A stretch of 51,359 nt of DNA, taken from the sequence record PZ452592.1; one strand, given 5' to 3'. The DNA comes from a phage. The notes under the pieces are model-generated. The model did not search any database. It was not told the origin of the DNA and worked only from the letters and a program-made list of their open reading frames with translations. This document shows positions 28,364 through 48,750 of the stretch, piece after piece (the first letter of the stretch is position 1; each line of letters begins with the position of its first letter). The position numbers were made by a program, and so were the translations under genes.

Positions 28364-30361
28364 ATGATTCCAAATATCGAAAAACAAATATCAGCGTTAG
28401 GCGAGGCAGTAATAAAAAGCATCCAAGAGCGATTCACGGTTGGCAATATAGTGCCTTATCCTTATCAGTGCGTTGCGTATGCCGAGATCGCAAAGCGCAT
28501 GAAAAACTATGAGCATCCTTTCTTTGTTAAGGCTTCTGTGTCGGCTGGCAAAACATTGATGTTTGCGATGGTTGCGGCGCAATGCCGCAAAATGGGATTG
28601 AAAATGATGGTCCTTGCTCGCCAGGCTGAAATTGTTGATCAGGATTCGGAAGAGATCAGCAATCTTGGAGTGCCAAACTCAATCTATTGCGCCGGACTGA
28701 AAACAAAAAGCGCATACTTTCCGATCGTGGTCGGTTCTGAGGGCACTGTAGTAAACGGATTGTTTAAGTCGTTAGGTGATTATGTTCCGCACGTTATCGG
28801 TATTGATGAATGTCACCAGGTGGATTGGGAGGATCTCGCGGACGCGATAGAAAATAATGAATCTTACCAGCAGATGACCACTAAGAAGGATTTGCCAGTA
28901 CTGATTGGAGAAGAACAGCAATTTGATTCCAATGGCGATCCAATGTTCGGAACAGGACGCACACAGTACACCGTAATAATCATGGAAATGATGCGCAGGT
29001 GTCGCGAGGCATACGGGCACGAATTGCGAATATTCGGTATGACTGGATCTGAATTTCGCGGCGTGGTTCCAATACTGGTTGAAGATAAGAACAAAAAGGG
29101 ATTCTGGCGTGAGCAGGTGACTAACATAGACACAAACTACTTAATCAAATTCGGTTCGGTAGTGCCAACAAACTTCGGCGACGTAGGCGACCTGGGTTAT
29201 GACCTTTCAGAGTTCGAAGCCAGTAGCGAGGATGGCGTTTCAGACTTTGACGCTAAAACATTGCGCAAGATGGAAGAAAAGATCCATCAAGACGCAACAA
29301 TGACACAGAAAATCATGGCTAAAGTCCATGAGATATGCAAAGACAGGAACGGAGTTTTAGTTACATGCGCAGGGGAAAGGCACTGCAAGGAGGCCGCCGC
29401 CGCACTGCCGCCAGGCGTTGAATACAGGATCATAACTGGCAAGACTGGAGATAATCAGCGTAAAGAGTGGCTGAGGGAGGCATACGAGGGAAAAGTAAAA
29501 TACATCTTCCAGGTACAGGCGCTTACCACTGGCGTTAACGTTCCGTTTTGGGATACTTCGGTAATACTGAGAAAGATAGGATCTCTAACATTGCTTATCC
29601 AGCTTTTGGGGCGCGGCATGCGACTGCTTAAGCAATGGCACATTGAGCAGGGATTCAAGAAAAAAGATCATCTTGTATTGGATTTTGCAGGTACTATGGA
29701 TGAGTTAGGTGATTTGTATTTCGATCCAATCCTTGAGCAAGCGCAATTCCAAAAGAGATTTACAAACGGGAAAGAGCCTAAGACTTGTCCGATATGTGGA
29801 ACGCTAAACAGCTTTTACGCTCGCCGATGTATGCACGTAGACGATAACGGGAAGCGATGTGAGCATTTTTGGACTTACAGAATTTGCGAGGACCAGGTAG
29901 ATCCGAGAACGAAAAAGATAATCAAGCGCGGTTGCGGAACAAAAAACGACGTAGTGGCGAGAGTATGCCGTTGTTGCGATATTTCTCTTGTCGATCCTAA
30001 CGAGAAGTTAAGCGGTAAGCACTACACCAAAAACGATTGGTGCAACGTTAAATCTTTCCGCGTTGATATGACGAAAAACCAGAAAGGAATTATTTTTTGC
30101 TATGAGCTTGAGGCCAACGGCGACACGTTCAAGGCATACGAAAGATTTTTCCCTGAGTCAGAAAGCAACATTTGCCGGACGATATGGAGAAAAATAGCAT
30201 TGCAGCACATACCGGATCGCAAGATTGCTGGTATGGTGGCGAGCTATAGAAATGCTCGTAAAATAATGTCATACGCTCATCACATCATGCCGCCTGTACG
30301 CGTAACGCATCGCAAAAACGGCAAAGGTGAGGATAACATTGCAAAACGGGAGTTTGTTTAA
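28364..30361 (+). CDS. DNA helicase (SF2, DExH-box)
   Basis: Walker A SAGKT, motif II GIDECHQ; Cys-rich zinc-ribbon-like C-terminal part. Confidence 0.8.
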   Translation: MIPNIEKQISALGEAVIKSIQERFTVGNIVPYPYQCVAYAEIAKRMKNYEHPFFVKASVSAGKTLMFAMVAAQCRKMGLKMMVLARQAEIVDQDSEEISNLGVPNSIYCAGLKTKSAYFPIVVGSEGTVVNGLFKSLGDYVPHVIGIDECHQVDWEDLADAIENNESYQQMTTKKDLPVLIGEEQQFDSNGDPMFGTGRTQYTVIIMEMMRRCREAYGHELRIFGMTGSEFRGVVPILVEDKNKKGFWREQVTNIDTNYLIKFGSVVPTNFGDVGDLGYDLSEFEASSEDGVSDFDAKTLRKMEEKIHQDATMTQKIMAKVHEICKDRNGVLVTCAGERHCKEAAAALPPGVEYRIITGKTGDNQRKEWLREAYEGKVKYIFQVQALTTGVNVPFWDTSVILRKIGSLTLLIQLLGRGMRLLKQWHIEQGFKKKDHLVLDFAGTMDELGDLYFDPILEQAQFQKRFTNGKEPKTCPICGTLNSFYARRCMHVDDNGKRCEHFWTYRICEDQVDPRTKKIIKRGCGTKNDVVARVCRCCDISLVDPNEKLSGKHYTKNDWCNVKSFRVDMTKNQKGIIFCYELEANGDTFKAYERFFPESESNICRTIWRKIALQHIPDRKIAGMVASYRNARKIMSYAHHIMPPVRVTHRKNGKGEDNIAKREFV

Positions 30362-30780
30362 TGGCTATAACTGATAAAGGAGATTATCTTGAGTTTTACG
30401 AAAGAGATCCAACCGACACGAGAAAGGAAGTTAATCACCAGATAGATAGCTTTCAGTGGTTGACTTATGCTCATCCTTATTTGCTAGCGTGGCATACGGT
30501 AAACGAGAATGAGAAGTCGAAAGTAACGGCGATGATTGATCAGCAGTCCGGCTTGGTTAAGGGGGTAAGCGATTTCATCATCCTGATTGGTTCAAACGGA
30601 AAATACCCCTTTGCAGCGATTGAGATCAAACGAGTGAATAAATCAGGCAAGGGGAAAGCATCACCAGTCAGCGATGAACAAAAGGCTTTTTTGCGTCGCG
30701 TTCGCAGCTTAGGAGGATTCGCTGCGGTCGCCTACGGATTTAATCAGTTTAAGTTAGCTATTGAATACATGCTTAAATAG
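30361..30780 (+). CDS. VRR-NUC domain nuclease
   Basis: GVSDFIILIGSNGKYPFAAIEIK...SDEQKAFL matches the VRR-NUC D...ExK pattern; ATG overlaps helicase stop. Confidence 0.65.
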   Translation: MAITDKGDYLEFYERDPTDTRKEVNHQIDSFQWLTYAHPYLLAWHTVNENEKSKVTAMIDQQSGLVKGVSDFIILIGSNGKYPFAAIEIKRVNKSGKGKASPVSDEQKAFLRRVRSLGGFAAVAYGFNQFKLAIEYMLK

Positions 30781-30820
30781 CACTTTTTGTTAAAACTGGC
30801 GCGATGGATTGCGCCATAAT
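30778..30820 (+). promoter_or_regulatory. 19-mer promoter cassette
   Basis: TAGCACTTTTTGTTAAAAC (TAG is the stop of the upstream gene) + 18-nt inverted repeat + CATAAT. Confidence 0.5.
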
Positions 30821-30860
30821 TCAATAACACGAGATGGCTTTTAATAGCGGAGAAATGAAA

Positions 30861-31586
30861 ATGGCTAAAGATATTTTAGATAAAGACACCCATGACGCAT
30901 TCGTTAGCTTTGAGCAGTTGGAGAGAGAAACGTTTATAGGAAATGCTCTTGCAACTGGAGGCCATTACCAGGCAGTAAAGCCAAATCAATATTATAAGGT
31001 AAGCGGCAACCGATACGCTGGAAGCACTACGCCGGACGTTGTGCGCGATATGTGGAGCACGCCTCAAGAGATCGTGGAGTGGATGGAATCAGAATTTGGT
31101 GAATACGATCTCGACGCGGCAGCAAGCCAGGAAAACGCAGTTTGCGAGAAGTTCTACAGCAAGGAAACAAATTGCTTAAAGCGTTGGTGGGGTAGCAACA
31201 AGCACGTATGGCTTAACCCGCCGTACAGCAACCCAACTCCATTTATCAAGAAAGCAATTGAGCAAATGGAGCACAACAACCAAATTGATGTTTTGTTGCC
31301 ATCCGACAACTCTACAGCATGGTTTTATGAGGCGCAGAAAAACGCGGCTGAAATCATCTGGATCACTGGCGAGGTTTACGAAGAGGGTGGAGTAGAATAC
31401 TCCCGCACAGGAAGAATCGCCTTTGTGTCTGGATTGACTGGCGAGCCTGTACAGGGCAACAACAAGGGAAGCGTGATTTTTGTCATGCGCAAACTTAAAG
31501 AAGGAGAGGAGCAGAAAACGCGATACGTTAAGATCAGCGATATTTGCCCCTCTGTAACCGAACGCCGCGCGCGCAAACGGAGCTAA
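30861..31586 (+). CDS. dam: DNA N6-adenine methyltransferase (Dam-like)
   Basis: motif LNPPYS ((D/N)PPY) and DLDAAAS; start taken at ATG 30861 after GGAG (alternatives 30834, 30855). Confidence 0.7.
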   Translation: MAKDILDKDTHDAFVSFEQLERETFIGNALATGGHYQAVKPNQYYKVSGNRYAGSTTPDVVRDMWSTPQEIVEWMESEFGEYDLDAAASQENAVCEKFYSKETNCLKRWWGSNKHVWLNPPYSNPTPFIKKAIEQMEHNNQIDVLLPSDNSTAWFYEAQKNAAEIIWITGEVYEEGGVEYSRTGRIAFVSGLTGEPVQGNNKGSVIFVMRKLKEGEEQKTRYVKISDICPSVTERRARKRS

Positions 31587-31590
31587 CACG

Positions 31591-31848
31591 ATGAAAAAAG
31601 AGAGAAGCGTTTATTTAAATGAAACTGGCGAGTGGTTGTTATTTCGCGCTATGGTGTGCGATGCACTTGATAAAAACCCTAACGTGAAAAAGATGATTGA
31701 TTGCGATCCGTGGGAATTTTCAAGCGCATTAGATATTAGCTTTGATGAGACAAGAAAACTCCCTCTTGAAAAATGGCACGAACAAATCAGAAATGATATG
31801 CAAGAGTTTGTAGATTCGTGGAATTTTCAGAACGGAATGATCCACTAA
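31591..31848 (+). CDS. hypothetical protein
   Basis: 85-aa ORF, GGAG 8 nt upstream. Confidence 0.5.
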   Translation: MKKERSVYLNETGEWLLFRAMVCDALDKNPNVKKMIDCDPWEFSSALDISFDETRKLPLEKWHEQIRNDMQEFVDSWNFQNGMIH

Positions 31849-31891
31849 TAGCACTTTTTGTTAAAACGCCCGGCATTTTGTCGGGCATAAT
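31849..31891 (+). promoter_or_regulatory. 19-mer promoter cassette
   Basis: TAGCACTTTTTGTTAAAAC + 18-nt hairpin GCCCGGC...GTCGGGC + CATAAT, then TTCATCGAAACGAA leader. Confidence 0.5.
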
Positions 31892-31917
31892 TATTTCATC
31901 GAAACGAACGTGAGGAA

Positions 31918-32103
31918 ATGAAAATGGTAGTATATAGCAAGAAAGCATTTGACAAGGCGCAACAAGCCGCACGCGAGGCGGTAAAAGGTGGAACGAAAAA
32001 CAATATGCAGCTTGATTGGGGCGCTGCAATGATTCTACTTCGCGTTGCATATGGTCACTACCCATTAGAATTTGCGGAGGCATATTATAAGCATGAAGGT
32101 TGA
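31918..32103 (+). CDS. hypothetical protein
   Basis: 61-aa ORF after RBS GAGG (start 31918 or 31924). Confidence 0.5.
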   Translation: MKMVVYSKKAFDKAQQAAREAVKGGTKNNMQLDWGAAMILLRVAYGHYPLEFAEAYYKHEG

Positions 32104-32335
32104 ACAAGGTAGAGAGGCGGTATGGAATCACGCTAAAGAATGCGGAATAGCCGACGATATAAAGAAGATCGCGCAATACTTTGATATTGCAGATGTGAGC
32201 ATAATTAGCGGCGATAAGATGACTTTCCTCAAGGAAAGGCCGCGAAAAATGGTAAGAGTTCCAGCAGTTCCAACAAAAATTGATTTCAAAGAGGCAATGG
32301 CTAAAATCCGAGAGCCTCGCAAATATTATAAATGA
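32093..32335 (+). CDS. hypothetical protein
   Basis: 80-aa ORF from ATG 32093, GGAGG 12 nt upstream; overlaps previous stop. Confidence 0.45.
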   Translation: MKVEQGREAVWNHAKECGIADDIKKIAQYFDIADVSIISGDKMTFLKERPRKMVRVPAVPTKIDFKEAMAKIREPRKYYK

Positions 32336-32429
32336 GGATAGTTATCATGTGGCGCTTGTTTGTTCTACCGTTACCCGTTATCATCGCTGTTACAGTTATG
32401 TACCATATAGTGATGAGATAGGTAGCAGA

Positions 32430-33545
32430 ATGAAAAATGTAAAAATTACAGATGAGCAATTCAAGATCGAACGGGCGGCGGGTAAGACATATAAACAGAT
32501 CGCTCAAGAGTACGGAATGAATGTGAGAAGCGTCGAGCGTCGCGCGGCGCGACTTGCAAAGCAAGGCCAGGTATCCACCATTGGAGCGCCTGGTTTTGGC
32601 GTTCATGGTGAGTCAGTAATGACTGACAAAGAAGGCAACATAATCCTAAAGTGGACTAAAACCAGCAAGGATAAAGAGCAATTAGAAGCATTAATGCGCG
32701 CAGCAATGGAGGCATTTAGCGAGGAAGTGCCGCGATTAGATCCGGTTCCATTACAGGAGCGCGACTATAACGAAACGCTTTCCTTGTATCCGATCTTTGA
32801 CATGCACTTAGGCGCTATGGCCCATAAGCACGAATGCGGCGAAAATTGGGATACTGCCACGGCAGAGCGCGTTATGAATAACTTTATCGACTATGCTTTA
32901 ATGTGCGCACCGGATAGCGAAAAGGCTGTCATCCTGATTGGTGGCGATATGCTGCATAGCGACGGCCTGGAGGCGGTTACACCTGCAAGCGGTCACGTAC
33001 TGGATCAAGATAGTCGATATGCAAAATTGGTTTACGTTGCCATCCGTGCAATGCGACGCGCAATCAATAAAATGTTGTTAAAGCATAAACATGTTGAAGT
33101 CCAGATCGTAGAGGGCAATCATGACCAATCAGGAATGATTTGGCTGCGCGCAGCAATGGCGGCAGCATATGAAAACGAGCCGCGCGTTTACGTTGATGTT
33201 TCACCTCGCGTTGTGCACCATACGCAATACGGAAAAACTTTCCTTGCGTACCATCACGGGCACACAGTGCGCAAGCCTGAAACGTTGCTAATGATGTGCG
33301 CGTCCGATTGGCGGGAGGACTTCGGAAACTCAAAAACTATGTATGCGCACGTAGGGCATTGGCATCACCAGACCGTAACGGAAACGTCGCTTGGCATCGT
33401 GGAAGTACATAGCACCCTGGCGGCAAAAGACGCATACGCCGCGCGCGGTGGCTGGAGATCTCGACGCCGTGCGGCGGTTATCATTTACGACAAAGAGCAT
33501 GGAGAGGTGGGGCGATTTGTTCACTATCCAGAAATGATGAATTGA
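32430..33545 (+). CDS. metallophosphoesterase with N-terminal HTH
   Basis: motifs FDMHLG, GGDMLHSDG, GNHD, GHWHH; N-terminal HTH-like KTYKQIAQEYGMNVRSVERRAARL; start ATG 32430 uncertain. Confidence 0.55.
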   Translation: MKNVKITDEQFKIERAAGKTYKQIAQEYGMNVRSVERRAARLAKQGQVSTIGAPGFGVHGESVMTDKEGNIILKWTKTSKDKEQLEALMRAAMEAFSEEVPRLDPVPLQERDYNETLSLYPIFDMHLGAMAHKHECGENWDTATAERVMNNFIDYALMCAPDSEKAVILIGGDMLHSDGLEAVTPASGHVLDQDSRYAKLVYVAIRAMRRAINKMLLKHKHVEVQIVEGNHDQSGMIWLRAAMAAAYENEPRVYVDVSPRVVHHTQYGKTFLAYHHGHTVRKPETLLMMCASDWREDFGNSKTMYAHVGHWHHQTVTETSLGIVEVHSTLAAKDAYAARGGWRSRRRAAVIIYDKEHGEVGRFVHYPEMMN

Positions 33546-33591
33546 TGAATTTTTATTTAAATCAATGACAAATTAAATCAAAAACTTGCAA

Positions 33592-33620
33592 GGGGGCGGC
33601 GTTTGTCGCCTCTTTTTTTT
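33592..33620 (+). terminator. intrinsic terminator
   Basis: short GC stem GGCG-TTTGT-CGCC followed by T8. Confidence 0.5.
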
Positions 33621-33691
33621 GTTTAATTTTTTTACCATGTACGTTTATCATGCGGTCAATATATTGACTTTAATTAATATGGAGAATAAAA

Positions 33692-33907
33692 ATGAAAGAT
33701 TTTATTAACGCAGCTACCGCCGGATCTGGCGGTTCATCTATCGCAAGCGCCGCTACAGGGCAGTTAACCATTGCTATTGCCAGCTTTGTTTTAATGGCTG
33801 CATTCGGTGCATGGGGCGCTTACCTTCGCTGGCGTGATAGTAAAAAATTCCACGAGGCGATCGAAAAAGGTGATATTCAAAAAGCTATTGAGATCAGGGG
33901 CAAGTAA
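33692..33907 (+). CDS. holin
   Basis: 71-aa ORF with one hydrophobic helix ([21 protein letters not shown]) and charged C-terminus; directly upstream of endolysin. Confidence 0.6.
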
Positions 33908-34398
33908 TGAGCATAAAGAACAGGGTAGCGGCTGCGGCCTTTGGCGTTGCGGTTGCCTTGACTTCTCCACTTCTTGAAGAGATCGAAGGGGTAAGATACA
34001 AGCCATACAAAGATATTGCGGGGGTATGGACGGTTTGCGCAGGAATCACCGGACCCGATGTTATCCTGGGGAAAACGTACACTAAAAAAGAGTGTGATGC
34101 TTTGTTGGCTAAGCATATCCAGGTTGCTAAAAAGGAAGTTGACAAGCAAGTTAATGTTGACATTCCTGATAGTATGCGTGCAGCAATGTACTCATTCACT
34201 TACAATGCAGGTGTGGGAGCTTTCAGAAATTCAACAATGCTGAAACTCATCAACCAGGGGAAATTAAACGAGGCTTGCGATCAGCTTTATCGTTGGACTT
34301 ATTACCATAACCCAAAAACAGGAAAGCGCGAGAAGTCTAAAGGCTTACTTAACAGGCGCAAGGTCGAATACAAATATTGCACAATGGATCTGAAATGA
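33907..34398 (+). CDS. SAR endolysin (T4-lysozyme-like)
   Basis: catalytic E-x8-D-x5-T ([16 protein letters not shown]); Ala/Gly-rich N-terminal signal-anchor [16 protein letters not shown]. Confidence 0.85.
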
Positions 34399-34790
34399 TG
34401 AAGAAATTTTTAATCGCACCAATCGCAATGGCGGTGATCTTGTCTGGATGTTCAAGCGTTACGCCACTGACCGGATTAATCGGCAGTAAGCCGGAAATCA
34501 CAGCACAGGCTGGCGCGGAGAACGTGAAGCAGACAGTTGGCATTACAGCAAAGCAGGACGCCAGCACAAAACAGGAAACCACAATAAAGGAATCTGCGGT
34601 TGACAAGGTGGACACGTCCATCAAGAAGGATTTCACAACATCAACCATTCAGGCCAATACCATCAAGGCAGACAAAATTCAGGTCGTGCAGGGTAATAAC
34701 GGCAGATGGTACGATCCGGTAATCATATGCGTGGTTGTGTTAATTGTGCTGATTTGTCTTTACTGGAGAGAAAAGAAAAAGGAGGCTTAA
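34395..34790 (+). CDS. unimolecular spanin (u-spanin)
   Basis: N-terminal lipoprotein signal with lipobox LSGC plus C-terminal transmembrane helix [16 protein letters not shown]; overlaps endolysin stop. Confidence 0.75.
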
Positions 34791-34806
34791 TGCCTCCTTT
34801 ATTTTT
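34779..34806. terminator. bidirectional intrinsic terminator
   Basis: hairpin AAGGAGGC-TTAAT-GCCTCCTT with A-run before and T-run after, between convergent genes. Confidence 0.7.
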
Positions 34807-35029
34807 ATGCGTCGGGCCACATATGAGTTTCGTTTGTTGGCTTGTTCGATTCGTCGTACTGCCTTACTTCAATGCTGCAAGTGTCGCCATACATTTCTGC
34901 AATCTTGCGCTCATTTTCAACCGCCGATTGCTCACTCCATCCAAAACCTCTGTCGTAAATTGTCGGGATTTCAGCAGAAGATCCGTTGTCATGATTATAT
35001 ACGCGAACTACTAAAAACTTGCTGGACAT
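34805..35029 (-). CDS. hypothetical protein
   Basis: 74-aa ORF downstream of cassette at 35066. Confidence 0.5.
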   Translation of the reverse strand: MSSKFLVVRVYNHDNGSSAEIPTIYDRGFGWSEQSAVENERKIAEMYGDTCSIEVRQYDESNKPTNETHMWPDA

Positions 35030-35065
35030 AATTTTACCTTTTGGTTGTTTCGTTTCGATGAAACA

Positions 35066-35108
35066 AATATACCCGACACTAGGCCGGGCGTTTTAACAAA
35101 AAATGCTA
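35066..35108 (-). promoter_or_regulatory. 19-mer promoter cassette
   Basis: minus strand: TAGCATTTTTTGTTAAAAC + 18-nt hairpin + TATATT + TTTCATCGAAACGAA leader. Confidence 0.5.
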
Positions 35109-35226
35109 TTCCATACGCTTTACCGTAACCAGTAATACACCATCATCATTGCATAAAACATGTTCAGTGGTGCTAAAAGCGCGCATATCTGAATAAAGTA
35201 GCGTAAGTAAAGCATGAATAAAATCC

Positions 35227-35622
35227 TCATGTGATATTGAATTTACGGCGCAGTGCTTCAAGATCTTGTCTATTAGCTTTTGCCTGGAACAATTCATCAT
35301 CGCCCATCTCCCCTATTCTAGCCATATCCCTGATCCAGTCGTTGCGCATACCATCCAGGCTATAAAATTCGAATCCGAAAGGCCGCTTTGACGATCCTTT
35401 GGACCAGTATTTACCGCAGACCCCATCTATATAGCCAGCCGTCATCATTCTTGCGCAAAATTCCTTAGATGCAAGGCTGGCGAACATTCGCGGAGTAAGT
35501 CCGGCGGCCCGTGCGAGCCGCTCACATTCTCTATGCTGATAGATAAATTTGGCTATGTGCTGCCTGTTAAACCAGTCGTATGACTCACACCATTTATACA
35601 GATCAAGCAAAAACATAATCAT
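35227..35622 (-). CDS. hypothetical protein
   Basis: 131-aa ORF, start overlaps stop of upstream gene. Confidence 0.5.
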   Translation of the reverse strand: MIMFLLDLYKWCESYDWFNRQHIAKFIYQHRECERLARAAGLTPRMFASLASKEFCARMMTAGYIDGVCGKYWSKGSSKRPFGFEFYSLDGMRNDWIRDMARIGEMGDDELFQAKANRQDLEALRRKFNIT

Positions 35623-37199
35623 CCCAGCAGTATTGGATTGACAAAAATAACACCATTAATCACACAAACATAATTTCTTTCTTCCAGCATTGGCAGCAAG
35701 TGCCCTTCTATCCTCTTCATTACGCCAGCCTGACCAACGAAAGGTTTTACCTTTCTCGCTGATTCGTACAGGGCGCGAATATTCAGGATCCCTTTGTTAG
35801 CCTTGCCGTGCCTCGTGATCAATTCAATCAATTTACCCATTTCAGCATCATCACCAGCATAACCAGAAGCATTGGCGGCGCTAATGTATGTTTTGCTCAA
35901 CTCCTGAAACATGATCAGAGCCTCTTGCATTGTATCTACGTCGATCTCTTTCGACTTCTGCGGGTATCCAGCAGGATTAAACCAGTTGCGTATAACATGC
36001 AGGACGGAAGCAAGCCTGATCACCTGTTTATCCATTTTACCCAGCGCACCGCGTAACATTGTATGAGAATACTTTCCTCCGTCTGCAAGATGCGGTTCCA
36101 TATCCTGGCGAGCAATGTTGAGCACTCGCATAGCTGAACGGCTTATTTTCAGCGATATATTTGATTCGCTCATGATGTTATGCACCAATTGATAATATTG
36201 GGCTTTCAATTCAGAATCCACCGCCTCATAGGTAGAATCACCATTTTCATCAATGAATGAGCGACGGCCTAAGAATGATTCCTCGCGGACCAACAAAAAA
36301 CGCTCACTAACACCGATGCCTCGCGATCCAGCGTCCATTATTCCGCTTATCGTTTCATCCTGGGCTATAACGCTCATACATCCAAGCGCGCGAAAACTCA
36401 TATTATTGTCAGCATTAGCGCGGGCAATTGATACGTGACCATTATCCCACGCCTTAAGCACTAACTCACTGTTAGTCTTCCTTTCGCTATTTGCATAGGT
36501 CAAGCCTAACAGACTGTTAATACTTGTTGCTTCATCAGATATTACGGCAAAGTTACCTTGCTTGTTGTTGATTTTCGCCAAGCCTTCTGGAGTTGTATCT
36601 GAAACAGGAAAAGTTATATCACACATTTTTTCCAGTTTTTCCTCCAGATCCTCTTTTTCCTGGTATAGAGATTCCATATCAGCGCCGGATCTTTCGCTTT
36701 TCATCTCCTTTGCAAGACCTGCCAGCTTTGCCTGTATTTTCTTTCTTTCCTTGCGGCGTTGCTCGTTGATCTTCTCAACTTCCGCAATCATCGGAGCAAT
36801 AGCCATGCTGTTGATCGCAGATTTACCAGTTGACGGCGGCTGGCTTGTAACGACGTAAAGCGCAGTCGGCTGATCGGTTCCGTGATAGTCAACCGTAAAG
36901 CGTCCAAGCATAGCGGCAGAAATGCAGCCGATAAAGTGCATGTAAGCCGATGATTCAGGGAATTGAACGGATCGCGCAATGCTGCGTGATAACTTGCCGA
37001 CAACATCAATATCATTACCAAGAGAAATAACGGGGTAGCGATCGTGACCGCTATTCACATCCTTTACGTCGCCCCAAAAGCTGGACGACTGGCGATAGCC
37101 GTTAGCCTGAATTGATACGCGAACTGGTGAGAGGTTCTGGCTTTCAGCCATAGCGATTATTTGCTGTGGAGTTAATTTGTTCGTTTCTAATGAAAACAT
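35619..37199 (-). CDS. P-loop NTPase (DUF3987-like), putative replication protein
   Basis: 526-aa ORF; P-loop SQPPSTGKSAI; RBS AAGGAG upstream of ATG 37199. Confidence 0.5.
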   Translation of the reverse strand: MFSLETNKLTPQQIIAMAESQNLSPVRVSIQANGYRQSSSFWGDVKDVNSGHDRYPVISLGNDIDVVGKLSRSIARSVQFPESSAYMHFIGCISAAMLGRFTVDYHGTDQPTALYVVTSQPPSTGKSAINSMAIAPMIAEVEKINEQRRKERKKIQAKLAGLAKEMKSERSGADMESLYQEKEDLEEKLEKMCDITFPVSDTTPEGLAKINNKQGNFAVISDEATSINSLLGLTYANSERKTNSELVLKAWDNGHVSIARANADNNMSFRALGCMSVIAQDETISGIMDAGSRGIGVSERFLLVREESFLGRRSFIDENGDSTYEAVDSELKAQYYQLVHNIMSESNISLKISRSAMRVLNIARQDMEPHLADGGKYSHTMLRGALGKMDKQVIRLASVLHVIRNWFNPAGYPQKSKEIDVDTMQEALIMFQELSKTYISAANASGYAGDDAEMGKLIELITRHGKANKGILNIRALYESARKVKPFVGQAGVMKRIEGHLLPMLEERNYVCVINGVIFVNPILLG

Positions 37200-37227
37200 T
37201 CGTTAGCTTCTCCTTTGTGGGCCGTAA

Positions 37228-37271
37228 ATTTTAACGGCCCAATACTACCCCGTTTTGTCAAAAAGTGCTAT
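37228..37271 (-). promoter_or_regulatory. 19-mer promoter cassette
   Basis: minus strand: TAGCACTTTTTGACAAAAC + 18 nt + TAAAAT (in hairpin loop), then RBS. Confidence 0.5.
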
Positions 37272-37489
37272 TTGATCCGCTCTATTGCAACCAGAAGTCG
37301 ATCAGGCTGGCGGTCGCTGTAGCATTCTCCTGTAATCCCATCCTTAAACGTAAAGTAAAGCGCCTTATGATATGAAAAACCAATCAGCCAACCTACCGCC
37401 GTTTTTTTGATGGGCCTGACTATATCGCCAGGCTTGAAAGTCTTTGTGGTAGAATGCGTTACTTTGTAACGGTTCTCACTGTTTATCAC
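37268..37489 (-). CDS. hypothetical protein
   Basis: 73-aa ORF; stop TAG lies in the 19-mer; start overlaps upstream stop. Confidence 0.5.
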   Translation of the reverse strand: MINSENRYKVTHSTTKTFKPGDIVRPIKKTAVGWLIGFSYHKALYFTFKDGITGECYSDRQPDRLLVAIERIK

Positions 37490-37872
37490 AGATATTTGCC
37501 CTCAAACAGATAACATCCGCCAGCAGAGAATCCGACCTCTTCACGGTACAGGTTCCAGCGGTCGCCGCACTCATCAAAAACATAACCCGCAACGCTTCCA
37601 AGCGGTCGCCCTTTCTCGATCTGGTATCGCTTGCCCTGCTTAAAGTGCTTTTTGCACGGCATGTTATGATCTACAAACGTGCAAAGAACGGTTTTTGTGT
37701 TAATGGTGCGGTAATCATCTCGGTTTGCTGGAAGCCAGCGGCTACCCTTAACAAGCGTCTTAACCTGGAACTCTTCCACCTCGATCACATCATTACTTCC
37801 TGCAATCTTCTGATAAACCGTTTTAAAACGGCCTTTCATCAATACGTTGGTTTCATTACAGATAACATTCAT
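37486..37872 (-). CDS. hypothetical protein
   Basis: 128-aa ORF with RBS AAGGAG, downstream of cassette at 37902. Confidence 0.5.
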   Translation of the reverse strand: MNVICNETNVLMKGRFKTVYQKIAGSNDVIEVEEFQVKTLVKGSRWLPANRDDYRTINTKTVLCTFVDHNMPCKKHFKQGKRYQIEKGRPLGSVAGYVFDECGDRWNLYREEVGFSAGGCYLFEGKYL

Positions 37873-37901
37873 GATTAGATCTCCTTTGTTTGTTCGATGT
37901 G

Positions 37902-37945
37902 ATTATGCCAGGTTTTTACACCTGGCTTTTAACAAAAAGTGCTAT
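37902..37945 (-). promoter_or_regulatory. 19-mer promoter cassette
   Basis: minus strand: TAGCACTTTTTGTTAAAAG + 18-nt hairpin CCAGGTGTAAAAACCTGG + CATAAT. Confidence 0.5.
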
Positions 37946-38652
37946 TTTGAGTTTGACTCAAAGACGGCGCGAGCAAAGCCGCGCGGAGTGAGGGAGCGGA
38001 TCATCTTTGTGCGCGATGACTTACCGCCAGTTTTGGCCCAGCCTGGATTATCTTTGTCTTCCTCTTTCGGCAGGATTAAAGCGCGTGGAGGAATAACAAA
38101 GCCGTTGCCAGTCCAGAGGCACGTTTTCTTAAAATAGCGATCACGCGCCGGAATAATATCAGGGAAGTCGGGATGTTTATCATCTTCCGGCAGATAGCCA
38201 GCGTAATCGCACGGATGGAACGTATAATCAGGCTTTCGCCATAACGTTGACAACTTGCCAACCGGATTTTCGATCATGTAAGGAACGCCGAAATAATCAG
38301 CTATATCAGCCGCGATCCTGCAAGTGTCGGCGGCCTCATCCTGGAAAGATGGATTCTCAAGGCGTTTTTTGGCCCAATGGCGAGATCCGCTATTTGCAAG
38401 GTCAGTGCACGGCGGAAATGCCATAATAAAGTCAGGAATGCCCCATTCCTCCCAGCGCGCGCGGTGGTAAAATCTTTCATCAATCCAGACGTTAACGTAT
38501 TCGATATTCTCATGCTGTATGCGCACTGACTGGTAATCACCGTGATCGCCGCCGTCAGCATTAAAGCAAATGCACTTATAGCCATTATCAGCCCAATCTT
38601 TAACGGCTTTACCAGATCCATCAAATAGGGAGAATATTAAACCTTTATACAT
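37942..38652 (-). CDS. putative DNA cytosine-5 methyltransferase-like protein
   Basis: motifs FDGSGKA, FPPCTDLANSG, IENPVG resemble C5-MTase motifs I, IV, VI; small (236 aa); ATG 38652 with GAGG. Confidence 0.4.
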   Translation of the reverse strand: MYKGLIFSLFDGSGKAVKDWADNGYKCICFNADGGDHGDYQSVRIQHENIEYVNVWIDERFYHRARWEEWGIPDFIMAFPPCTDLANSGSRHWAKKRLENPSFQDEAADTCRIAADIADYFGVPYMIENPVGKLSTLWRKPDYTFHPCDYAGYLPEDDKHPDFPDIIPARDRYFKKTCLWTGNGFVIPPRALILPKEEDKDNPGWAKTGGKSSRTKMIRSLTPRGFARAVFESNSK

Positions 38653-38662
38653 CGTCATTACC

Positions 38663-38887
38663 TCAAAACGGAAAACAGCGCGGACAACCAGGATCGAAAT
38701 CGCATCCACAATCATTAACAATCATATTGGGATCTGCAAATATTGCGCTTGATTCAAGATCCATATCCATATCACCTAAAGCCTCATCAAGAGTCTTAAT
38801 TTTATATGCCACTTCAAGCGCCGCCTCTTTATTTAGTCCGGCATCTTCTGCCATTTGAAGGCGCTCAAAAAAACCGTCCTGACTCAT
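38663..38887 (-). CDS. hypothetical protein (acidic, C-terminal Cys cluster)
   Basis: 74-aa ORF; ATG overlaps stop of upstream mini-gene. Confidence 0.45.
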   Translation of the reverse strand: MSQDGFFERLQMAEDAGLNKEAALEVAYKIKTLDEALGDMDMDLESSAIFADPNMIVNDCGCDFDPGCPRCFPF

Positions 38888-39000
38888 CGCATAACTCCCT
38901 TAATAACAGCCAAGATAATAGCCAGGCCAGCAGCAGTAACCAAAAATCCAACCGCGCCAATAATCGAATAAAAAAAGAAATCAATAGCTTTATCTATCAT
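38884..39000 (-). CDS. small hydrophobic membrane peptide (38 aa)
   Basis: not in ORF track; RBS GAGGTGA upstream of ATG 39000; MIDKAIDFFFYSIIGAVGFLVTAAGLAIILAVIKGVMR. Confidence 0.3.
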   Translation of the reverse strand: MIDKAIDFFFYSIIGAVGFLVTAAGLAIILAVIKGVMR

Positions 39001-39010
39001 TTTTCACCTC

Positions 39011-39035
39011 ATTTAAAAGGCGGCAAAACGCCGCC
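39011..39035 (-). terminator. intrinsic terminator (minus strand)
   Basis: hairpin GGCGGC-AAAAC-GCCGCC; U-run follows on minus strand. Confidence 0.5.
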
Positions 39036-39042
39036 AGATTAA

Positions 39043-39270
39043 TTAAAGAGCGCGCCAACTTTGAATATAGAAAGCGTTTTCTTCCAGTAATTCTTTTACC
39101 TGATCTTTATTGTATTTGCGCACCTTACCGCCTGGATGGATACCAATAAGATAGCCGCCTTTGCCCTCGGTGATAGTGATTTGGCTAATTCCGCAGGACT
39201 TATCAAGTTTTACAGCCACGCGGTGATGAGCGTCAATAGTTGCCATAATGTTTAAAACTTTTGCTTTCAT
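39043..39270 (-). CDS. hypothetical protein
   Basis: 75-aa ORF, RBS GAGG 8 nt upstream. Confidence 0.5.
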   Translation of the reverse strand: MKAKVLNIMATIDAHHRVAVKLDKSCGISQITITEGKGGYLIGIHPGGKVRKYNKDQVKELLEENAFYIQSWRAL

Positions 39271-39378
39271 TTAAATATCCTCAATTGAAATATGAATGAC
39301 GTGGCGCTCTTTTTCCGTCGCCGCCGTAATGGTCATTTGCAACCGCCACCATCCAAGCGTTTTTGAAAATAAATAGCC

Positions 39379-39591
39379 TCATTTCTTATTTTTCAGCTTA
39401 AATTTATGACCTGGAACACCAGCGCCAATATACCCATCGTTGTATTCCATTAAATAAAGGTGAAGACCATTATCTGAAATTACATGAGGATCTTCTTTGA
39501 GATTTCCCATTAGTGGATATTCTTTTCCGCGCGTAAATTTCCAAATTGAGTTATAAGTTTCTACGCATTTAAGTTTTAATTGCTTTGCCAT
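39379..39591 (-). CDS. hypothetical protein
   Basis: 70-aa ORF, start overlaps upstream stop. Confidence 0.5.
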   Translation of the reverse strand: MAKQLKLKCVETYNSIWKFTRGKEYPLMGNLKEDPHVISDNGLHLYLMEYNDGYIGAGVPGHKFKLKNKK

Positions 39592-39788
39592 TAAATGATC
39601 TCCATGTATGTTTCAAAGCCATTTAACTTGAACAGGCCGTTTTCACATTTGCGCACATTCCAAGTTAGCCCTGAGTGGTACGCCTCCATATCATCAAGGT
39701 CAATGGTGATTTCAGCACCTTTCTTAAACAAACCTTTTTCGTGAGACTTGTCGCGCTTAACAACTTTAACATCAACCTGATTTTCCAT
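39591..39788 (-). CDS. hypothetical protein
   Basis: 65-aa ORF from ATG 39788 (track start 39839 is GTG inside the promoter cassette). Confidence 0.45.
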   Translation of the reverse strand: MENQVDVKVVKRDKSHEKGLFKKGAEITIDLDDMEAYHSGLTWNVRKCENGLFKLNGFETYMEII

Positions 39789-39819
39789 CTTTAAATCCTC
39801 GCTTGTTGTCGATGGGTGT

Positions 39820-39863
39820 AATATACCATTCAGGCGCACATCGTTTTTAACAAAAAGTGCTAT
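39820..39863 (-). promoter_or_regulatory. 19-mer promoter cassette
   Basis: minus strand: TAGCACTTTTTGTTAAAAAC + 17 nt + TATATT + CATCGACAACA leader. Confidence 0.5.
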
Positions 39864-40150
39864 TCAACAACTTTTCCAGTTAAAGAGATAAGTTGCCTTG
39901 TAATCTTGTGGCGGCGATACTTACGCGCAACAACAGGAAGGCTTTCACCGCTTTGATGACCAAAGCAGATCGGCAATTCACCTTCAAGCGAACGGAAGCC
40001 ACCAAATTCAAGATCCCGCACTGGCTTCGTGCGCCAGGCTTCAATAAATCCTCGCTCGTCACGAGTGATATAGCGGTATATATTTGGGAGGGGCAATTGT
40101 ATCCCCTCAAAATCCACTGTGTCGGTGTAGCTGTAAAACTTAGAACTCAT
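39860..40150 (-). CDS. hypothetical protein
   Basis: 96-aa ORF from ATG 40150 with GGAG upstream; stop TAG in 19-mer. Confidence 0.45.
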   Translation of the reverse strand: MSSKFYSYTDTVDFEGIQLPLPNIYRYITRDERGFIEAWRTKPVRDLEFGGFRSLEGELPICFGHQSGESLPVVARKYRRHKITRQLISLTGKVVE

Positions 40151-40292
40151 AGTCAACAACTCCAAACTCGTTAACGATTTGCGCCTTGTAGAATCCGCCA
40201 TTTTTCGCCAGGTTGTAACAAGCGGCTACGGTTTCAAATTCGCGCGCTTCCGGCTGGCTGTTTTCGTGTTCCCAGGTAATCAGAGTAACCAT
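40140..40292 (-). CDS. small hypothetical protein (50 aa)
   Basis: not in ORF track; RBS GAGG upstream of ATG 40292; downstream of cassette at 40326. Confidence 0.4.
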   Translation of the reverse strand: MVTLITWEHENSQPEAREFETVAACYNLAKNGGFYKAQIVNEFGVVDYEF

Positions 40293-40325
40293 TTTCAAAT
40301 CCTCGCATTCGTTGTCGATGCGTGT

Positions 40326-42752: not shown

Positions 42753-43021
42753 AAAAGGCATTAATCAGCGTTTTGGTGGCAATGGCATTCCTGACCGGAT
42801 GCAAAGAAGATGGCGCGCATGTTGGCAATGTGCAGATGGCTAACCCTGGCGATGACTACAGCGTAAGGGAGCTATTCACCGCTGACGGTTGCACAGTTTA
42901 CCGATTCTATGACGATCGCACTGTTTACTTCACCAACTGCAAGGGAACGACTAGCTGGGAAGTGTCGAAAAGCAACGGTAAAGGCACAACAACAGAATAT
43001 ATGACCGTCGAGACAAAATAG
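42749..43021 (+). CDS. lipoprotein
   Basis: signal peptide with lipobox MKKALISVLVAMAFLTGC; ATGA overlap with upstream stop. Confidence 0.55.
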   Translation: MKKALISVLVAMAFLTGCKEDGAHVGNVQMANPGDDYSVRELFTADGCTVYRFYDDRTVYFTNCKGTTSWEVSKSNGKGTTTEYMTVETK

Positions 43022-43061
43022 CACTTTTTGTTAAAACGCCAGGTGCAAAGCCTGGCATAAT
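43019..43061 (+). promoter_or_regulatory. 19-mer promoter cassette
   Basis: TAGCACTTTTTGTTAAAAC + 18-nt perfect hairpin GCCAGG...CCTGGC + CATAAT + TCATCGAAACGA leader. Confidence 0.5.
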
Positions 43062-48416: not shown

Positions 48417-48707
48417 ATGGCAAACAAAACTTACCGCAAACTACTGGTTAACGCTTTTGAAAACATCGCGCAGTGTAACAAGTGGAACGACTCTAAACAC
48501 TCGCCAATCACAATGAAGCGCGCCGGATTCAAAAATGCTCGTTCATGGGCGCGAGCTTTCGCAGCTTGCTATATGCCGGATGGCGGACTAGGGGCGATGA
48601 ACGATTTTTTGATCAACATGATAGAGGAAGCGGCGCGAGAGGATCGGCCGCTGACACAGCGAGATTTTGACGACTTCGCGCGCGATGAGCTTTACTATCT
48701 GAGCTAA
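48417..48707 (+). CDS. hypothetical protein
   Basis: 96-aa ORF, RBS AAGGGGA. Confidence 0.5.
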   Translation: MANKTYRKLLVNAFENIAQCNKWNDSKHSPITMKRAGFKNARSWARAFAACYMPDGGLGAMNDFLINMIEEAAREDRPLTQRDFDDFARDELYYLS

Positions 48708-48750
48708 TAGCACTTTTTGTTAAAACTTCCGCAAGGGCATTTGGTAAAGT
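48708..48750 (+). promoter_or_regulatory. 19-mer promoter cassette
   Basis: TAGCACTTTTTGTTAAAAC + 18 nt + TAAAGT in loop of hairpin AAGGGCA...TGCCCTT. Confidence 0.45.

Follow-up and report, generated by a model that had tools for sequence, protein, structure and literature searches.

Two solitary DNA methyltransferase genes, dam and a dcm-like gene, in a T1-like coliphage genome

Background

The DNA methyltransferases of T1-like coliphages have been studied experimentally in phages such as T1 and K42, and we describe here the counterparts of these enzymes in a phage genome of 51,359 nucleotides (nt; sequence record PZ452592.1), the whole of which is referred to below as the window. They are encoded by a dam gene at positions 30861..31586 and, on the opposite strand, by a dcm-like gene at 37942..38652. 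The Dam protein of T1 (M.EcoT1Dam, YP_003925.1) methylates GATC sites, and its sequence is not related to that of the host Dam; following CRISPR deletion of the T1 gene, GATC was unmethylated in a dam- host, and T1 DNA is only partly methylated by host Dam (PMC10470545). The virion DNA of phage TLS, which shares its subfamily with the window phage, contains more than 200 adenine-methylated GATC sites, the enzyme not being assigned in that study (PMC11447400).

The phage cytosine methyltransferase was described in work on retron Ec86. Wang et al. isolated escape mutants of K42, a KarlJaspers-like phage, and found a 711-bp dcm gene disrupted in all four of them (4/4); two of the escape mutants had a point mutation that lay 9 bp upstream of this gene (bioRxiv 10.1101/2023.08.16.553469). 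Expression of K42 Dcm increased the amount of 5-methylcytosine (5mC) in the multicopy single-stranded DNA (msDNA) of Ec86, as measured by LC-MS (liquid chromatography coupled to mass spectrometry), and was toxic only when the retron was present. A C82A/E128A/K175A/K176A mutant was inactive and produced no 5mC, and a change of either cytosine in the CCTGG of the msDNA abolished triggering of, and defence by, Ec86 (bioRxiv 10.1101/2023.08.16.553469). KarlJaspers belongs to Hanrivervirus, the sister genus of Warwickvirus.

Results and discussion

The window represents a virulent T1-like coliphage, whose genome encodes two solitary DNA methyltransferases and no partner nuclease. Its placement in Warwickvirus (Drexlerviridae, Tempevirinae) comes from the 9-kb region around both genes, which along its entire length matches many deposited coliphages, Phunderstruck, orkinos, tonn, swan01 and vB_EcoS-95 among them, at 97-98.6% identity. 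We consider it very probable that Dam, acting at GATC, and a C5 enzyme, probably acting at CCWGG, would together give the virion DNA an E. coli-like methylation. The two open reading frames (ORFs), and all five peptide motifs from which a first-pass annotation of the bare sequence had proposed methyltransferases of two different classes, are present where that annotation placed them.

Both genes are already known: dozens of GenBank phages nearly identical to this one carry annotations for them, and their counterparts were studied experimentally. Warwickvirus genomes about 98% identical to the window in nucleotide sequence label the same two genes dam and dcm, and the curated entry of the BASEL phage FritzSarasin names them "Dam-like N6-adenine methyltransferase" and "Dcm-like C5 cytosine methyltransferase". 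A preprint by Olsen et al. (2020) mentioned dam and dcm, and the journal version carries no text on methylation. With these annotations and the T1 Dam and K42 Dcm experiments already published, the discovery value of the present analysis is small.

The dam gene

The 241-amino-acid (aa) product of 30861..31586, on the plus strand, is clearly predicted to be a phage Dam-family N6-adenine DNA methyltransferase. It matched PF05869 in a Pfam profile search (E 1.6e-61; 207.3 bits, cutoff 28.1), the equivalog TIGR01712 in an NCBIfam profile search (E 2.1e-53; 180.2 bits, cutoff 97.05) and phrog_111 in a PHROGs profile search (E 1.5e-87), and the first two of these matches bear out the N6-adenine class that the first-pass annotation had assigned. 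Members of the family carry a DxDAAA motif for binding of S-adenosylmethionine (SAM) followed by a catalytic (D/N)PPY motif, and both are found here in that order: DLDAAAS at residues 83-89 (nt 31107-31127) and LNPPYS at residues 118-123 (nt 31212-31229), the latter including the catalytic NPPY (residues 119-122). A PDB sequence search found no solved relative of the protein. The Shine-Dalgarno sequence GGAG (30849-30852) lies 8 nt before the ATG at 30861.

T1 is a member of the Tunavirinae and the window phage of the Tempevirinae; the two Dam proteins are orthologs. They share 66% identity over 218 residues (E 4e-115), with identical DLDAAAS and NPPY motifs, and the N-terminal 23 residues are without alignment. 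The gene order helicase, VRR-NUC, dam is the same in both phages, and in both the same 20-mer repeat and a hairpin precede dam.

The Dcm-like protein

The 236-aa product of 37942..38652, on the minus strand, was more difficult to classify. It matched phrog_757, "DNA methyltransferase", in PHROGs with an E of 1.5e-85, while Pfam and NCBIfam scans gave zero matches even at E <= 10, and the gathering threshold of PF00145 was not reached. PDB sequence searches with the protein alone and with a 50-sequence profile were marginal, the best values being those of DNMT3B (E 0.056) and M.HaeIII (E 0.06). Among 50 relatives, PF00145 was the sole recurring Pfam family, with weak matches in seven (best E 0.0039). 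In the profile search that the first-pass annotation had proposed, Dam lies far above the Pfam and NCBIfam cutoffs; for the second protein phrog_757 was the only match. As Pfam and NCBIfam gave nothing for it, we identified this protein through PHROGs, published work and a comparison of folds. Pfam and NCBIfam do not cover the family, and consequently its members are often labelled "hypothetical protein".

This family is a large one. We found 3033 homologs in 90% clusters and, at 50% identity, at least 1175 clusters, nearly all of them 210-260 aa long; the family is present in 1499 phage records of many lineages, or about 3% of those in GenBank. The residues D11 G12 S13 G14, P81 C82 and E128 N129 P130 are invariant in 38 homologs, F10 and K175 K176 are nearly so, and C82 and E128 are still invariant in 50 more distant homologs. 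In view of this conservation, of the phrog_757 match and of the Dam profile scores, the motifs of the two genes are not due to chance. These positions fall in three motifs of C5-cytosine methyltransferases: motif I (FDGSG) in FDGSGKA, residues 10-16 (nt 38605-38625); motif IV (PPC) with the catalytic C82 in FPPCTDLANSG, residues 79-89 (nt 38386-38418); and motif VI in IENPVG, residues 127-132 (nt 38257-38274), which reads ENP where PF00145 enzymes have ENV. The QxRxR of motif VIII is not present in the protein, and KK175-176 (nt 38113-38130) stands in its place. Between the strand at residues 177-182 (strand 7) and the C-terminal helices, a target-recognition region of only about 30 residues (183-212) is left, and a further conserved insert of 30 residues is found at 146-176. 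The first-pass annotation, which had remarked on the small size of the protein and on the lack of an obvious target-recognition domain, was correct in substance.

An alignment-based AlphaFold (AF2) model of the protein had a mean predicted local distance difference test (pLDDT) score of 88.6 and a predicted template modelling (pTM) score of 0.88. In a Foldseek search of the PDB the top 50 matches of this model were all methyltransferase domains of the DNMT3 family (DNMT3A/3B/3C), with E values down to 2e-7 and a probability of 1.00, and its neighbours among the viral structures of BFVD were overwhelmingly cytosine methyltransferases. As judged from this modelled fold, the product of 37942-38652 is a minimal C5-cytosine methyltransferase. 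Its K42 counterpart has the same 711-bp length, the same numbering of C82, E128, K175 and K176 and the same genomic neighbourhood in the sister genus. The C5 call, which the first-pass annotation had regarded as the weaker of its two, thus gains from both the fold and the K42 counterpart, and is stronger than was supposed.

It is very improbable that this ORF encodes something other than a DNA methyltransferase, be it an inactive relic, an RNA methyltransferase or another base-modifying enzyme. The missing Pfam and NCBIfam matches and the marginal DNMT3B and M.HaeIII values would suit such a protein, but in this family of more than 3000 sequences the SAM-loop residues are invariant, as are the catalytic cysteine and the ENP motif, and the fold search matched C5 DNA methyltransferases specifically, where the first-pass annotation had allowed for a grouping with some non-methyltransferase fold. 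The possibility is essentially refuted by the 5mC measured by LC-MS for the K42 ortholog and by its inactive quadruple mutant (bioRxiv 10.1101/2023.08.16.553469).

Close orthologs are readily found: that of FritzSarasin is 96.6% identical to the window protein, and the sister-genus proteins examined are 88-97% identical. KarlJaspers is not among the 60 matches listed from the phage collection, all of which have at least 91.5% identity, so that its protein is probably less than about 91% identical to that of the window. Among known enzymes, the catalytic domain of DNMT3A/DNMT3B is the best match in sequence (phmmer E 0.056) as well as in structure (Foldseek E 2e-7, template modelling (TM) score about 0.5), and it resembles the phage protein in having a very small target-recognition region. 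However, the identity is 12-18%, the DNMT3 catalytic domain is about 50 residues longer, and DNMT3 reads CpG and acts as an oligomer with regulatory domains; a specific evolutionary link is not supported here.

The E. coli Dcm and M.EcoRII enzymes (PF00145) share the C5 chemistry, and probably the target CCWGG, with the phage protein, and motifs I, IV and VI of E. coli Dcm and an RxLTPRExARL-like C-terminal motif can be aligned with it; near its C-terminus the window protein reads RSLTPRGFARAV (nt 37963-37998). E. coli Dcm is 472 aa long, however, as compared with 236 aa for the phage protein, which lacks the large target-recognition domain. The candidate assignment of the phage protein as an ortholog of E. 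coli Dcm was ruled out, the best BLASTP E value being 2.5 and the hhalign probability 1.2%, confined to motifs I-VI. As applied here on the basis of these alignments, the name "Dcm-like" is one for function and not for orthology.

Some relatives of the protein are domains within longer proteins, namely BFVD entry A0A6J5SE15 (1397 aa) and P0210, P0224, P0245 and P0260 (401-563 aa). In one case, from an uncultured phage, the domain is joined to a helicase/UvrB-like N-terminal region.

Start of the dcm-like gene

We favour the ATG at 38652, which would give the 236-aa protein, as the start of the dcm-like gene, on account of the position of the Shine-Dalgarno sequence, the N-termini of homologs and the K42 escape mutation at -9. 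The sequence GAGG (38661-38664, minus strand) is found 8 nt before this ATG, and its last G, at 38661 (position -9), is the counterpart of the K42 nucleotide altered in two Ec86-escape mutants. For dam and the dcm-like gene alike, the start codons chosen in the first-pass annotation are those best supported.

In many GenBank and RefSeq records the dcm-like gene is begun 21 codons earlier (774 bp), in the stretch 38653-38721 (minus strand), and overlaps the preceding gene by 53 nt, and the cluster representative P0001 (257 aa) shares this longer start. If ATG 38652 is correct, the annotated start would often be 21 codons too long. No Pfam matches were found in the ORFs flanking the dcm-like gene, and thus no match to a Vsr domain next to it.

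Probable target sites of the two enzymes

We infer that the window enzymes share the specificities of those of related phages. In the window GATC and CCWGG are not avoided: there are 310 GATC sites, 1.59 times the number expected from base composition, and 137 CCWGG sites, 1.95 times expectation. Only five CCSGG sites occur in the 51 kb (0.09 times), where 57 are expected by base composition and 20 by a Markov model. GGWCC (12 sites, 70 expected) and CTAG (34 sites, 195 expected) are depleted as well.

CCWGG is most probably the target of the Dcm-like enzyme, by analogy with K42 and from the sequence of a close relative. Shigella phage 2019SD1 (Hanrivervirus; NC_049820.1 / MT360681.1; L051 in our comparison set) is represented by an unpolished sequence obtained with nanopore R9.4 and Albacore only. 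Its relative L040 has 36 CCWGG sites, none of which is kept in 2019SD1 (0/36); they are read as CCGGG, CCGTG or CC-GG, with many 1-nt deletions. Between the two, conservation of 5-mers is 77% overall and 70 of 77 GATC sites are unchanged; CCWGG is the only extreme outlier among 462 5-mers, and in a control pair, L040 and L014, there is no CCWGG loss of that kind. With the default models of Albacore, CCWGG sites that carry Dcm methylation are known to be miscalled (PMC6591954). Taken with this known signature, the miscalls suggest that the 2019SD1 deposit inadvertently reports complete CCWGG modification in a close relative of the window phage.

Before the miscalls were recognized, 2019SD1, with zero CCWGG sites and a "divergent" methyltransferase, had been considered as a natural control for CCWGG avoidance, and it was rejected as such on account of the systematic nanopore error. 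The same miscalls probably frameshift genes of this deposit, its own Dcm-like ORF (apparent identity 33.6%) among them.

The comparison set consisted of 54 Dam-centred IMG/VR loci (L005-L058) and of T1 (L004). In each of the 14 CCSGG-depleted loci long enough to judge (14/14, 13.6-20.7 kb), the dcm-like gene is present and 27-66 CCWGG sites per locus are kept, and two loci without a detectable dcm-like copy have only one CCWGG site. This association of the dcm-like gene with CCSGG depletion and CCWGG retention is suggestive only, since many gene-bearing lineages keep CCSGG undepleted.

One of the loci, L038 (IMGVR_UViG_3300048920_000084; 16.7 kb, Drexlerviridae-like), encodes a Dam 65% identical to that of the window; in it CCWGG and CCSGG occur only once each, GATC 98 times. 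A dcm-like gene was not found in this stretch, but the contig stops short of the position where it would be expected; the locus may be a natural control in which CCNGG is avoided without cytosine methylation.

An active C5 methyltransferase with a target other or broader than CCWGG appears improbable to us, but would be in keeping with several of the features described above. E. coli Dcm and M.EcoRII have unrelated recognition regions, that of the phage enzyme being tiny, and no similarity to E. coli Dcm is detectable outside the catalytic motifs; just the 30 or so residues at 183-212 and the 30-residue insert at 146-176 would be available to read the site; and the nearest structures, those of DNMT3, read a site of 2 bp. 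Furthermore, little 5mC was found in the msDNA of MG1655, a dcm+ host, before the phage enzyme was expressed (bioRxiv 10.1101/2023.08.16.553469). On the other side, changes of either cytosine in the CCTGG of the msDNA prevented triggering in the same study, CCWGG is kept in all of the CCSGG-depleted gene-bearing loci, and the position of CCWGG as sole extreme outlier in 2019SD1, whose ortholog is about 90% identical, argues against extra 5mC motifs.

Several observations nonetheless weigh against the explanation that the two enzymes act at GATC and CCWGG as a shield for the DNA. PF05869 includes enzymes of relaxed specificity as well. With no significant similarity to E. coli Dcm, the CCWGG specificity is not transferable to the phage protein by homology. 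The host's own Dcm could contribute to, or be the source of, the signal in 2019SD1. T1 has no dcm-like gene and still shows no avoidance of CCWGG, with 83 CCWGG and 65 CCSGG sites in L004. The K42 study used a dcm+ host and took the methylation site as given without mapping it (bioRxiv 10.1101/2023.08.16.553469). Finally, most Drexlerviridae of the BASEL collection are very sensitive to restriction-modification, in no simple relation to their methyltransferase genes.

A more far-reaching proposal, which we regard as tentative and rather doubtful, is that a large family missed by Pfam and NCBIfam, with almost no target-recognition domain, reads the 5-bp site CCWGG by a structurally undescribed mechanism, and that in Warwick- and Hanriverviruses this activity is coupled to a nearly complete purging of CCSGG. 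If this were true, every CCNGG site would be either methylated or absent, amounting to a combined defence by methylation and avoidance against EcoRII-type enzymes and CCNGG-type (SsoII/Ecl18kI-like) enzymes.

Possible roles of dual methylation

In the proposed mechanism, Dam would carry out SAM-dependent N6-methylation of GATC adenines in the replicating DNA of the phage, a task for which the host Dam would be too slow. The C5 enzyme, with Cys82 of motif IV, Glu128 of motif VI and the FDGSG SAM pocket, would form 5-methylcytosine, most probably at CCWGG. The virion DNA would in this way receive a full "E. coli-like" Dam and Dcm pattern independently of host methylation, and this pattern would block GATC-specific endonucleases of the MboI/DpnII type and CCWGG-specific ones (those of the EcoRII type, and the CCWGG subset of cleavage by CCNGG-type enzymes). 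Dam may also raise phage yield apart from restriction.

Anti-restriction, which the first-pass annotation had suggested and which is the conventional rationale, is a plausible selective benefit of such dual self-methylation, given that the motif statistics fit and that the related phage pSf-1 is reported to be resistant to several restriction enzymes. The main benefit of the two methyltransferases could instead lie in phage DNA metabolism, for instance if host systems that depend on GATC were prevented from taking rapidly replicating DNA for un- or hemimethylated DNA, or if replication or packaging were supported. We think this possible but clearly less likely. It would account for T1, in which loss of dam reduced the burst size to about 60% of wild type (about 40% lower) with no restriction system involved and host Dam present (PMC10470545), and it agrees with the lack of a simple link between methyltransferase genes and restriction phenotype in BASEL and with the viability of K42 dcm deletions, which makes dcm an accessory gene (bioRxiv 10.1101/2023.08.16.553469). 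Against it, pSf-1 is reported as resistant, and the depletion of CTAG, GGWCC and CCSGG but not of GATC or CCWGG fits restriction pressure together with a methylation shield.

The benefit of the C5 enzyme would come at a cost, as retron Ec86/Eco1 would detect its activity on the msDNA and abort the infection. Sensing by Ec86 makes the cytosine methyltransferase a liability too (bioRxiv 10.1101/2023.08.16.553469). A Dcm-like enzyme predicts that the window phage would be sensitive to retron Ec86/Eco1 and resistant to EcoRII-type cleavage.

Intergenic repeats

A 20-mer repeat, AATAGCACTTTTTGTTAAAA, is found in 19 copies in the window, where none (0) is expected by chance, and in 11 copies in the T1 locus. 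A repeat of 20/21 nt has been described between the genes of TLS, T1 and Rtp, its function being an open question (PMC11447400); a literature search with the repeat sequence itself found nothing, and the description was located in the TLS paper.

The first-pass annotation had given each of the two methyltransferase genes its own cassette with a 19-mer, which holds for dam and not for the dcm-like gene. The copy upstream of dam lies at 30776..30795 (plus strand). It is followed by a GC-rich hairpin, GGCGC...GCGCC, at 30798..30815, the equivalent of which is annotated as a rho-independent terminator in T1, and then, 19 nt past the repeat, by a -10-like hexamer, CATAAT (30815..30820), which we propose as a promoter element of dam. 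The copy at 37927..37946 (minus strand) overlaps the end of the dcm-like gene at its TAG stop codon (37942-37944) and, together with the hairpin and CATAAT that come after it, belongs to the gene that follows (37486-37872). On the same strand, the nearest repeat upstream of the dcm-like gene is the one at 39845..39864 (minus strand), at a distance of about 1.2 kb and with four small ORFs separating them; between 37946 and 39845 there is no copy on either strand, even with a looser, degenerate pattern. This upstream repeat could possibly mark the start of a transcription unit in which the dcm-like gene comes last, and a terminator-like hairpin (39019-39035) is located between the two.

A scan for sigma-70 promoters from 30300 to 40300 gave no more matches than shuffled sequences did and missed the repeat-associated sites. 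For 15 of the 19 copies, a (T/C)AnnnT -10-like hexamer is present 18-20 nt downstream, which would put the repeat at about -52 to -32, and GC hairpins, terminators according to the T1 annotation, are often found inside the spacer between repeat and hexamer. This arrangement suggests that the repeat sites may be promoters in which a factor-binding element takes the place of the -35 box. Further copies that fit the AATAGCACTTTTTGTTAAAA pattern on the plus strand are those at 31847-31866, 43017-43036 and 48706-48725. The TAG within the repeat is used as a stop codon by two upstream genes; in the copy before dam this TAG (30778-30780) ends the VRR-NUC gene.

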